In this document: one piece after another, positions 9,701 to 12,700 of the stretch | Layout: the number at the start of each line of letters is the position of its first letter | How positions within the stretch are numbered: the first letter of the stretch is position 1 | Source: Euglena gracilis | Taxonomy: Eukaryota | Assembly (NCBI GenBank): GCA_039621445.1 | Contig: CP154954.1 | Location: 27,927,735-27,991,734 of the forward strand | Direction: 5' to 3' | DNA length: 64,000 nt | Program-made: the position numbers and the translations under genes | The notes under the pieces: model-generated | Database searches by the model: none | Told to the model about the DNA's origin: nothing | The model's input: only the letters and a program-made list of their open reading frames with translations

Positions 9701-12700
9701 CAACCGCCGCCTGGGGTCCCCCATCGTTCCCCATCAGGACAGGACCGGCGAGTTCCGAAGCCTCCCTGGCCGACCCTATTCGTGCTTGGGTTGCTGTTGT
9801 GGGTACCCAAGAAGTCTGTAGCGGGTTGCCTTGGTGGCCTGGGGGCAGATGCAAAGTACGCGTTAATTTGCCGCGTCTCAAGCTGTGGCTCCCGTGGTCG
9901 CCCGCCACCCCAACCTTCGGTGTCCGCCCCCCCTCCCCTGTGCCACGGTGCCTCCGGATGCCCAGCGCCGTCCACACCGTGCTGGTGTCCGACGACGCCG
10001 TTCGGTACGACTGGGCTGCCCTGCCCCTCCTGCTGCAGCGGGCACTGGCCGCCTCCCGTCTCGCCGGCTGCTGGTCAGCTGCCAGGCACCGGGGTGGAGG
10101 CAGCCATCCAAGCACCTGTCTCTACTCCGCAGTTGCATCTTCTCCAGTACAGAATGACTCCCCAAAACCTTGAGATGGCCAAAACTATCACAAATGAACT
10201 CCCCAATGAACCACATTTGCCACAAAGATGGCAAAAAAATTTCCGAGCATAACCCAAATGGCCAAGAATAGCCAAGAATGACCCTGCACAATTGGAGCAA
10301 GTTATACACCTCTGTGTGTGTGTGTGTGTGTGTGTGTGTGTGTGTGTGTGTGTGTGGTACCTCTCTGCCCTGTTCGCGATGTTTTAGATTCTCTGGCAGA
10401 TTCTCTCTTGCGTGACGTGCAGCGGCTGCGAGAGCGGCCGACATCCAGCCCTGTCCTACCCAGGGCGTTGCCAAAGCCGAAGGGCACCCCAAGGGCATCC
10501 CTGGGGGGGGCGTCCTGCCAGCCAGCCAGGCAGCAGCCTTCTTCCATTCTCGGACTCCCTCCCCCATCGAGTTTTATTTGTTTTGCAGCCACCCAAAGGG
10601 CAGCTGGGCGGTGACAGATTACTGGCGTTCGGAGGTGCAAAAAAATGGGTTAAAAAAATGGGTGAAAATAGGTTGGAAAAGGGCTGGCCAGGGCAAATAT
10701 AGCGTCAAGGAATCTTTTTTTTCTTCACGGGTTGGCAGTTTTTTGGGGGGGGGCATTTTTTGGCACCCAGTTTTTCCACCCCAGTCAAAATTCCAGCCCT
10801 GGGATCCCTATGGGGGGGGGGTCAGTGAGCGGCCTTTTTCCAGCCAGCCCAGGCCTGTGAGCTGGACCTCCCCCAGGCCGGGGGTCCTTGAGCAGCGCCC
10901 TGGTCCTGCCCACCCGGACCGGCTCCATGACCAGCTGGCCGCGTTCGTCCAGTACCTGCGGCAGAACGTGACTCAGGGCCATGCCATTGCTTAACGGTCA
11001 CCCCATCCCCATGGGGTGACTGAAATAGTTTTTTTTTAGGACAAATTGGTATTTGCGCCAGGACCCACCACAGCCACACACACACACACACACACACACA
11101 CACACACACACACACACACACACACGCGCGCACACGCACACACACACACACACACACACACACACACACACACACACACACACACACGCGCGCACACGCA
11201 CACACACACACACACACACACACACACACACACACACACACACACACACACACACACACACACACACACACACACACACACACACACACACACACACACA
11301 CACACACACACACACACACACACACACACACACACACACACACACACACACACACACACACACACACACACACACACACACACACACAGCCGAAGGCAGC
11401 AGAAGTTATTTTTTTCATTTTGAAGAAGTAGCCGAAGTGCTTTCTTTTTTCAGCTCGACCGAGTGGACTCACCTGATGGGTCTGGGAATTTATTGAAGAT
11501 TGAGAGTGACGTGGAAATTGGGTTGCTCACCTGATGGAGAGCAACAAACGACACCTGGGTCAGCTGTCTGGCTGCTCAAAATTGTTGCCGCCGTAAACAG
11601 ACGAGAAGCCTTAGTGGAGAGAGGGGAGTGAGCAGTGGCATGTGCTGGGCCAGCGGCGGCTGCTGCGTGCCTACGGCTTCTGCCGGGACCGGGAGGGCTC
11701 GGGCTTCCTGGTGGTGTGTGTCGGCTTCAGCAGTGCGGGTGTGCAGCGCGACCCCTCGTGCACCATTTTTGGGGGGAGCTGGCGCCGACGGAAACCCCAC
11801 GGCGATTTGTTGTCCCGACTGGGCAGTGTGGATGCTTGCAATGCACATCCATCTGGGCCCCTGCATCCATTTGGACATTTTGGCGCCAGAAAGGACCTGT
11901 TCTAACGAGTTGGCACGCGGGTCCCTCCAGGTGTCACGGTGCCGCGGACCGAGACCAGGCCCGGGTGGCGCTGCACTCCAGCGACCGCCTCGCCGTGGCG
12001 CAGCAGCTGCAGGCCCTGGAGTGGCTCCTCCAGAACGTGACCCCCCCAGGCCGCCTCGGGGGCTCCCCAGCGGAATCTTGGAAACACCAAAATTGAGGAT
12101 TTCGGAAAGGTTGGCTGTCCCCTGGTTTTTCACTGTCCCCGGCTCTCTGGGGGGGGGGGGGCGGGGGGCTTAACTCTGGGAGTGTTATTTTGGATGTGTG
12201 CTCGGTCGGTCTGGGGGGGCTGCTTTTGGGGAGGCCCAATTTGGGGGTGGGGGGGGGGGCGGCTTATTTTGGGAGGCACAAAAGCACATATGGCACAAAG
12301 TGGGGCCCCCATACCTGGGGTATGGGGGGGTATGGGGGCATGGGGGTATGGGGGGGAAGGGTTTGGGGATGTTTCTGATTAGGTTTATGGCCCCCGGGCA
12401 CTCGAACAGTTGCATACGTCGCGCGATTTGGCCACAAAAAAGTCGGTAGACAAGGATGAGGTTTGTTTTTTTGCCGGGGGTGTTTGGGGGGGGGGCGGGA
12501 GCCCCCCCCCTCCCCGGGCACTCGAACAGTTGCTTACGTCGCGCGATTTGGCCACAAAAAAGTCGGTAGACAAGGATAAGGTTTATGTTTTTTGCTGGGG
12601 GGGTTCGGGGGGGGGGCGGGAGCCCCCCCCCCCGGGCACTCGAACAGTTTCTCACGTCGCGCGGTCGAAAACTCTCATTTCCGGCTCAAAACCAGGTTTT

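Follow-up and report, generated by a model that had tools for sequence, protein, structure and literature searches.

A MITE of 442 bp is removed from RNA at its predicted boundary, together with one copy of its 8-bp target-site duplication, as a complete intron of a gene in Euglena gracilis. The element is localised at positions 10461-10902 of the forward strand of the 64-kb stretch of DNA analysed (hereafter the window). It is very probable that a hAT-like MITE inserted into a coding exon and is spliced out by the nonconventional (NC) intron machinery of Euglena, thereby restoring the pre-insertion mRNA. The insertion event itself we infer, since neither an element-free allele nor an orthologue was seen. 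Excision would be carried out by this NC-intron machinery.

Structure of the element and its removal from RNA

The element, its duplication and the intron that they form comprise the following features:

10453..10460, + strand: left duplicate of the 8-bp target site, GTCCTACC, made up of 5 exonic nt followed by the intronic N3 spacer ACC
10461..10902, + strand: non-autonomous element with terminal inverted repeats (MITE), 442 bp, family A
10461..10476, + strand: left terminal inverted repeat, starting with CAGGG, which includes the CAG required by the code at the 5' end; paired in the predicted folds (MFE and centroid)
10887..10902, + strand: right terminal inverted repeat, closing with CCCTG, the 3' CTG of the splicing code
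10903..10910, + strand: right copy of the duplication, GTCCTGCC; the N5 spacer occupies its first 5 nt, after which the exon restarts at G 10908
10458..10907, + strand: nonconventional intron of 450 nt, in the register fitting N3-CAG...CTG-N5|R

The terminal inverted repeats (TIRs) read CAGGGCG...CGCCCTG. Their arms (10460-10476 and 10887-10903) are 17 nt long and 82% complementary, and when read directly they form 11 unbroken pairs from the extreme ends, one of which is G.U. The flanking 8-mers are identical at seven of the eight positions, and an identity of at least 7/8 is expected by chance at a fixed register with a probability of about 4e-4 (own arithmetic). The arms and flanking 8-mers thus bear out a preliminary description of this DNA, which had recognised a 442-bp element with TIRs and a 7/8 duplication. 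With its TIRs, a duplication of fixed length, many copies and no transposase of its own, the element is a MITE. No Pfam domain was found in the stop-to-stop frame crossing it (10416-10991). A stretch at 10971-10997 resembling the left end was considered as a second copy and rejected, as RNA places 10974-10981 in an exon.

An RNA join from 10452 to 10903, with five ambiguous letters, skips 450 nt, the length of the element plus one copy of the duplication. It is found in one 1442-nt contig of run X1 (depth 61.1) and two reads of the RNA-seq run X21, a thin coverage of two raw reads and one contig in which the nature of X1 as RNA is a guess only. No read crosses the join in run X24, where three reads were placed in total. 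The RNA is compatible with intron bounds from 10453-10902 through 10458-10907, and the mismatched A 10458 is excised while G 10908 is retained. The junction is the one predicted in the preliminary description; the element is removed as a complete intron, and the duplication mismatch is intronic in the left copy, both as proposed there.

Joined RNA could also derive from a transcribed element-free allele or paralogue, rather than from splicing of the copy at 10461-10902. Run X1 contains an unspliced contig over 10367-10696 (depth 8.3), as this explanation would have it. The DNA-like run X20 has coverage in each of the 30 bins, contains the filled site only and has the joined form in no contig; this absence is weak evidence, as contigs may lose rare variants. 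The same RNA molecules also bear two other nonconventional joins, and the boundary falls exactly where an experimentally defined splicing code predicts it. Such an allele or paralogue is therefore a most improbable source of the joined RNA, and splicing of the element is the preferred reading.

The host gene includes the following exons and exon-like stretch:

4636..4767, + strand: exon-like stretch with a Pfam UPF0489 match (profile positions 24-65 of 167)
8494..8634, + strand: upstream exon; the 3' end at 8634 is set by loose-end consensus and 8494 is not a fixed 5' end
9596..9677, + strand: exon of the same transcript, from RNA
9962..10046, + strand: exon of the same transcript, from RNA
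10430..10457, + strand: upstream micro-exon, 23 nt with certainty (10430-10452) and 28 nt in the register of the splicing code
10908..10981, + strand: downstream exon, from RNA

The bounds of the micro-exon derive from the joins 10046->10430 and 10452->10903, with one record leaving 23 letters between the pieces. Its start in the RNA is thus 10430 (or 10431) and not 10420, as had been given. The intron after 10981 extends to 11652 and contains a (CA)157 array. A single reading frame is open through all joins, while the other two meet stops, and it reads ...IQPCP|AHPDRL... across the join at the element, the same fusion as that proposed from the DNA.

The identity of the host gene is less firm. 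The match to UPF0489 (PF12640; E = 0.0016) in one exon-like ORF agrees with the earlier designation of the gene as UPF0489-like, but its score of 19.3 bits falls below the gathering cut-off of 27. This match was obtained after a motif scan had located an exon near 4657, and a single exon rather than the spliced protein was searched. The gene may therefore be described as weakly UPF0489-like, and 4636-4767 probably represents its N-terminal part, though outside the exons joined by RNA. Nothing useful was found with Pfam in 22 stop-to-stop ORFs around the locus, while a search among longer proteins for homologues of the 47-aa exon provided four candidates, none of them significant.

Fit to the nonconventional splicing code

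None of the six registers compatible with the RNA has a GT/GC-AG boundary, and all six are thus nonconventional. Introns of this kind in Euglena are also treated by Milanowski et al. 2014 (PMC3935182), and their code has been defined by knock-in tests as 5'-N3CDG-/-CH'GN5-6|R-3' (Nomura et al. 2025, PMC12501133). Among the six registers, +5 alone combines N3-CDG and CH'G-N5 with a following purine. This is the rightmost register, 10458-10907, which reads ACC-CAG...CTG-GTCCT|G, with ACC-CAG at the 5' end, CTG-GTCCT at the 3' end and G 10908 as the purine. The N3/N5 rule applied in the preliminary description is equivalent to the published code, and the intron conforms to it in one register. A full fit is observed for one of the five RNA-supported introns of the gene; the joins 9677->9962 and 10046->10430 of the same transcript likewise cannot be slid to GT/GC-AG.

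The intron shares with other Euglena NC introns the lack of GT/GC-AG, CAG at +4 to +6, CTG at -8 to -6, a purine as first exon base, paired ends and a boundary that is slidable through direct repeats. Later removal than that of conventional introns is a further published criterion. Both the MFE and the centroid structure contain the terminal helix, so that the ends are paired in either of them. When the whole intron is compared with shuffled sequences (z = 0.15), 54 of the 100 shuffles are equally or more stable, and the total fold energy thus adds no support for the pairing of the ends. The intron is distinguished from the published NC introns in that, taken whole, it can be identified as one copy of a multicopy TIR family and has an 8-bp duplication that is nearly intact.

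Since the spacers of 3 and 5 nt sum to the 8 bp of the duplication, splicing regains the pre-insertion sequence and frame. The proposed series of events would begin when a coding exon of the UPF0489-like gene received a cut-and-paste DNA transposon of non-autonomous type, with duplication of 8 bp of the target. In the pre-mRNA the inverted ends would pair, drawing the two copies of the duplication together, and the NC-intron machinery would cut 3 nt upstream of the CAG at one terminus and, beside a purine, 5 nt downstream of the CTG at the other. The element and exactly one duplicate (3 + 5 = 8) would then leave, and the mRNA would regain its original sequence and frame.

Related elements and class of the transposon

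A search of the 64-kb window with nhmmer provided eight matches, representing seven distinct copies of family A, all on the + strand. The copies other than that at 10461-10902 are:

28940..29843, + strand: family A copy, split into pieces at 28940-29158 and 29713-29843
36645..37031, + strand: family A copy, degenerate (TGC) at its 5' end; flanking 8-mers 2/8
37148..37439, + strand: shorter family A copy; flanking 8-mers 1/8
39307..39718, + strand: family A copy with the duplication GTCTGGAT/GTCTCGCT (6/8); 5' terminus CAC, not CAG
48190..48619, + strand: family A-like copy with the duplication GCGTCAGC/GTGTCAAC (6/8); 3' terminus TTG, not CTG
63423-63586, + strand: family A copy, from nhmmer

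Three copies which were not used in building the nhmmer model are matched with E = 7e-17, 5e-14 and 4e-11. The family is accordingly multicopy, and the related copies described earlier (39307-39718 with 6/8, 36645-37031 and a right end at ~29835) are all real; those at 37148-37439, 48190-48619, 28940-29158 (left half of the copy with its right end at ~29835) and 63423-63586 are additional. In the DNA-like run, word depth is ~24-80 in the flanks and 154-7205 inside the element, values which do not represent a copy number. Duplications of at least 6/8 flank three of the five full-length copies (7/8 at 10461-10902 and 6/8 in two), with 2/8 and 1/8 in the other two. Of the four full-length copies besides that at 10461-10902, three have mutations in the terminal CAG/CTG, and in the last the place of the exon start is occupied by a pyrimidine. 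Judged from these termini, the broken code would be consistent with, though no proof of, their being unspliced 'ordinary insertions'. As exons here can be 23 nt long, an open frame across the excised sites of these copies is uninformative.

A second family with CAGG ends (CAGGCTT) is represented by four elements with 8-bp duplications of 8/8, 8/8, 7/8 and 5/8. The code is intact in the copies at 19808, 20985 and 24562, and broken in those at 39307, 48190 and 36645. One of these (29408-29703) is nested within another repeat, and is one of the insertions interrupting the copy at 28940-29843. Among CAG...CTG pairs with at least 10/12 matching positions in their inverted ends, 3 of 157 have flanking 8-mers of at least 7/8, against 0, 0 and 0 in the offset controls. 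In an unrestricted scan for TIRs with an 8-bp repeat, 93 of the 97 pairs derive from palindromic tandem arrays, one at 26.6-27.6 kb and the other at 32.5-35.1 kb, and three of the four outside these arrays are CAG...CTG elements. The sixth duplicated base is a purine in all seven elements of the window with a recognisable duplication, and the purine rule of the splicing code might thus mirror a target preference of the transposase. No Rfam match was found in the whole window.

These elements bear on the direction of events. The intron may have come first and the repeat second, with an old NC intron turning mobile and seeding the family, for example through excised circular RNA followed by reverse splicing or reverse transcription. 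Release of NC introns as circular RNAs is indeed reported (PMC11282704, PMC12501133), and all eight nhmmer matches (seven copies) are on the + strand, which is that of both genes whose direction can be inferred. Target-site duplications are not made by reverse splicing, however, and are found at 6/8 or better in three of the five full-length family A copies and at 8/8, 8/8, 7/8 and 5/8 in the second family. The nesting of 29408-29703 in another repeat represents a DNA-level insertion, and inverted ends that terminate in YARNG are a typical feature of DNA transposons (PMC3014272). An intron-first origin is accordingly quite unlikely, and these data argue for the insertion of a DNA transposon which is then spliced.

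The hAT elements are characterised by 8-bp duplications and the terminal motif YARNG (PMC3014272), and the 5' end of Ac/Ds is given as C/TAGGGATGAAA (PMC3260210). The element at 10461-10902 shares with hAT and Ac/Ds (PMC3014272, PMC3260210) the 8-bp duplication, YARNG (CAGGG at both ends), short inverted ends and a size of a few hundred bp, suggesting that it may be hAT-like. It differs in having neither a transposase nor an autonomous partner in the window, and in being removed at the RNA level by a dedicated code. A transposase domain was found in none of the ORFs of the 64-kb window that were covered (146 of the 151 of at least 130 aa and three shorter ones), and the hAT assignment is thus based on the ends and the duplication length.

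The transposon could instead be of the Merlin type, which would imply a different transposase but leave the biology of the intron unchanged. Two Merlin families with 8-bp duplications are described in E. gracilis itself (PMC8101967). Merlin ends have a conserved terminal 5'-GG-3' according to the same source, whereas the element and the second family both start with CA(G) straight after the duplication. A Merlin-type element is thus unlikely, and the hAT-like assignment is preferred.

Relation to introners and implications for nonconventional introns

Introners (Gozashti et al. 2022, PMC9860276) are likewise copies of non-autonomous DNA transposons that constitute complete introns, with the duplication helping to define the boundary. 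They are described as supplying or co-opting GT-AG sites for the spliceosome, whereas the element at 10461-10902 has none, and an Aureococcus introner adds 12 nt to the transcript (PMC9860276) where the intron at 10458-10907 leaves no trace. The introner elements of Amoebophrya (Farhat et al. 2021, PMC7789003) are closer in form, being non-canonical, MITE-like introns with inverted repeats at their ends and direct repeats at their boundaries. The direct repeats reported there are 3-5 nt long, with no fixed register stated in the account cited, whereas here the repeat has a length of 8 nt, divided 3/5 at a fixed register, and the lineage is a different one. With this register and the fit to the Euglena code, assignment as a dinoflagellate or Amoebophrya introner was rejected.

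In E. agilis, 71.8% of introns are reported to be nonconventional (PMC12501133). The origin of euglenid NC introns is termed unclear in the literature examined, where insertion of MITEs has been a hypothesis since 2013; PMC12501133 and PMC3935182 offer a MITE-like origin as a hypothesis only, and the word 'duplication' is absent from the main text of the former. The locus described here provides this hypothesis with its missing case, namely an intron which is end-to-end a multicopy transposon with its insertion scar and whose removal is verified by RNA. The main texts of the large introner surveys PMC9860276 and PMC12130899 contain no instance of the string 'euglen', and the locus would add to 'introner' biology a lineage and a mode of splicing that are blank in them.

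The arithmetic of 3 + 5 = 8 also accounts for the spacer lengths of the code. Genome-wide, it would be predicted that the sliding distance of junctions has its maximum at 8, that family copies match junctions at offsets 3 and 5, and that there is an autonomous element with CAGG ends. More tentatively, and with somewhat less than even confidence, we suggest that the NC splicing code of Euglena may reflect, at the level of RNA, a single kind of DNA transposon. If so, CAG...CTG would correspond to the YARNG motif at the ends of hAT-like elements, and the spacers of 3 and 5 nt to the two parts of their 8-bp duplication. Any insertion in a transcribed target with a purine as sixth duplicated base would then be a precisely removable intron from birth, and most euglenid NC introns would be decayed insertions of such elements. 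Owing to the 3/5 asymmetry, the paired ends of the intron would carry a 3' overhang of 2 nt, resembling the product of RNase III-type cuts.

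The element at 10461-10902 and its removal from RNA

The element at 10461-10902 spans 442 bp and carries terminal inverted repeats (TIRs; left end CAGGGCGTTGC..., right end ...GCAGCGCCCTG), which a repeat search of the window recovered as 17-nt inverted arms (10460-10476 / 10887-10903) with 82% complementarity. The flanking 8-mers, GTCCTACC (10453-10460) and GTCCTGCC (10903-10910), are identical at seven of eight positions, the sole mismatch being A at 10458 versus G at 10908. The DNA of the window is eukaryotic-looking, with ~44-64% G+C, long microsatellites and many repeats.

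Four public sequencing runs were compared with the region 9000-11060 for joints: X20 (DNA-like), X21 (RNA-seq), X24 and X1. The RNA nature of X1 was guessed, yet a single X1 record carries all three joins observed. No X20 contig contains any of them, though X20 covers 30/30 bins including the introns.

Joints present in the RNA runs and absent from X20 contigs
9677->9962, 284 bases skipped, 2 ambiguous letters
10046->10430, 383 bases skipped, 1 ambiguous letter
10452->10903, 450 bases skipped, 5 ambiguous letters; element site

The joint 10452->10903 is supported by one 1442-nt X1 contig (depth 61.1) and two X21 reads, and by none of the three X24 reads placed in the whole region. As 450 nt equals 442 + 8, the intron corresponds to the element plus one copy of the duplication. 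The upstream micro-exon (10430-10452) measures 23 nt, or 28 nt with the boundary placed rightmost, and sits between two nonconventional introns. Loose-end consensus sequences place neighbouring exon borders at 8634 and 11653. Across the joined RNA-supported exons a single frame stays open, with ...IQPCP|AHPDRL... at the element site, and both remaining frames contain stops. The preliminary description had noted a 442-bp element with TIRs and a 7/8 target-site duplication (TSD) and had proposed a fusion of IQPCP to AHPDRL across it; the ends, arms and flanking 8-mers confirm the former, and the RNA joint reads exactly as the latter. Its UPF0489-like label for the host gene fared less clearly. 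An exon-like ORF (4594-4794), upstream of the element on the strand of the transcript and joined to it by no RNA link, matches Pfam UPF0489 below the cut-off (E = 0.0016; 19.3 bits, cut-off 27), and the 47-aa exon had no relatives in a homologous-protein search. A UPF0489-like host gene is plausible but weakly supported.

An unspliced X1 contig (10367-10696, depth 8.3) and X21 reads of opposite mate orientation span the left part of the element. These sequences differ from the window by four substitutions and two indels, and four of the six differences (10503, 10547, 10571 and 10580) exactly match one X20 contig row; such sequences may come from another allele, from a paralogous copy or from antisense RNA. 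The 450-nt intron 10458-10907 is a multiple of three and stop-free in the mRNA frame, and its retention would add 150 residues with the frame intact. Only 51 of 20000 shuffles were stop-free in this frame, and stops interrupt all frames of the remaining four full-length family copies; the observation was made post hoc, and the open frame could be due to chance.

Fit to the nonconventional splicing code

None of the six junction placements permitted by the ambiguous letters at 10452->10903 yields GT/GC-AG borders. The rightmost placement (intron 10458-10907) alone gives ACC-CAG...CTG-GTCCT, followed by G. In Nomura et al. 2025 (PMC12501133), the signature 5'-N3CDG-/-CH'GN5-6|R-3' was defined via knock-in mutagenesis in Euglena, with no length change tolerated in the 3-nt donor spacer and an acceptor spacer of 5 nt or, less efficiently, 6 nt. 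A 2024 review places CAG at +4 to +6 and CTG at -8 to -6 and describes TSD-like repeats at the junctions (PMC11282704). The intron forms a terminal helix in both the minimum-energy and centroid folds, and its total folding energy is no better than that of shuffles (z = 0.15). By the published code it is an ordinary-looking Euglena nonconventional intron, with the difference that a transposon copy and its insertion scar can be recognised in it.

With spacers of 3 and 5 nt adding up to 8, splicing by this code takes out the insertion together with one copy of the scar and nothing else. Such an element landing in an exon would leave the mRNA unchanged if the sixth duplicated base were a purine, and this base is a purine in 7/7 elements with a recognisable duplication. 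The N3/N5 rule of the preliminary description agrees with the published code, and the TSD mismatch it had regarded as intronic in the left copy, A 10458, lies within N3, a spacer that accepts any base. Both its observation and its interpretation hold, with RNA support that is direct and of low depth.

A MITE origin of euglenid nonconventional introns was proposed as a hypothesis in 2013, when no transposable elements had been identified in euglenids (PMC3935182), and again in papers from 2024 (PMC11282704) and 2025, the latter stating that the 'origins ... remain unclear' (PMC12501133); the same hypothesis was raised for diplonemids in 2025 (PMC12621601). In full-text searches of freely available papers, with PMC12501133 represented by its main text, no paper was found that shows a nonconventional intron to belong to a multicopy family or relates the spacer lengths of 3 and 5 nt to a duplication of 8 bp, and neither of two large introner surveys (PMC9860276, PMC12130899) contains 'euglen' in its main text. 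The recognition of an intron as a visible transposon copy with its scar is new, and makes the old hypothesis testable genome-wide.

Two families of short elements in the window

BLAST of the element (family A) against the window gave partial matches at 36687-37010, 37166-37439 and 39468-39664. The window contains 17 occurrences of the heptamer CGCCCTG, where composition predicts 5.8, and five of these sites (10896, 29829, 37025, 37433 and 39712) share a long conserved right end. An alignment of five copies shows 55% mean column identity, with 35/35 invariant columns in the right-hand part. A profile built from them, which recovers the five by construction, matched outside the model at 48199-48612 (E = 7e-17), 28940-29158 (5e-14) and 63423-63586 (4e-11). 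All eight strong matches lie on the + strand; the - strand has two weak ones, between 42.6 and 42.8 kb. As 28940-29158 and 29713-29843 are the two parts of a single copy interrupted by nested insertions, seven distinct copies are present, bearing out the multicopy family initially proposed. Summed X20 word depth, no direct measure of copy number, rises from 24-80 in the flanks to 154-7205 inside the element, a pattern that fits a high-copy element, and many X20 contigs within it have internal deletions or diverging ends.

Family A copies, all on the + strand
10461
28940-29843
36645
37148
39307
48190
63423

This strand is also that of both genes with inferable direction, a bias not expected from the minimal code, which should work either way. 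Duplication of the target site is a trait of the family: flanking 8-mers of the five full-length copies agree at 7/8, 6/8, 6/8, 2/8 and 1/8 positions.

A further scan took in every CAG...CTG pair with a spacing of 60-2500 bp and at least 10/12 inverted ends, giving 157 pairs. Flanking 8-mers agreed at 7/8 or better in three of these, versus 0, 0 and 0 after shifting the compared 8-mers by 9, 13 or 17 bases. Two of the three are additional elements of a second family, with ends CAGGCTT...AAGCCTG.

Second-family elements
19808-19984, TSD 7/8
20985-21387, TSD 8/8
24562-24721, TSD 5/8
29408-29703, TSD 8/8 (TTCTCAAC on both sides), nested inside a family A copy

Together with family A, the genome therefore has two or more short-element families with CAGG...CCTG ends and 8-bp duplications. 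The full code is present in four of the nine elements examined (10461, 19808, 20985 and 24562), including three of the four in the second family. A terminal triplet is changed at 39307 (CAC), 48190 (TTG), 36645 (TGC) and 29408 (ATG), and 37148 has a pyrimidine at the exon-start place. Decayed ends in copies not needing splicing would fit the ordinary insertions of the preliminary description. Copy 48190 begins 7 nt after a donor-like CAG|GTGCGT (48180-48190) and may lie inside a conventional intron.

Palindromic tandem-repeat arrays at 32539-35150 and 26617-27560 (43-nt and 71/142-nt units, TAGTCGGCCGAC array) swamp inverted-repeat scans, and a short TTAGGG-type run occurs at 27635-27681.

Superfamily and neighbouring features

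As described, hAT elements combine an 8-bp duplication with a YARNG terminal motif (PMC3014272), and the Ac/Ds 5' end is C/TAGGGATGAAA (PMC3260210), the first five bases of which are the element's CAGGG. Merlin elements of E. gracilis likewise make 8-bp duplications, but a terminal GG is described for them (PMC8101967). Judged by its sequence, the element appears to be hAT-like. A domain scan of 146 of the 151 ORFs of at least 130 aa in the window, which omitted one unlisted ORF and the four that translate the (CA)n array, detected no transposase domain, so the element is non-autonomous.

The next intron of the host gene (10982-11652, 671 nt) holds a (CA)157 microsatellite. Its junction slides by 6 nt (GGGCCA repeated), and its junction 8-mers are 7/8 alike (CAGGGCCA/CTGGGCCA). 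The inverted repeat of this intron, CATGCCA/TGGCATG, is out of line with the junction repeats, and the full code is absent. The only clear domain match among the 146 long ORFs scanned is to WD40; it comes from two ORFs of a + strand WD40-repeat gene at 55096-58073 (Pfam WD40, E = 4e-11 and 2e-8).
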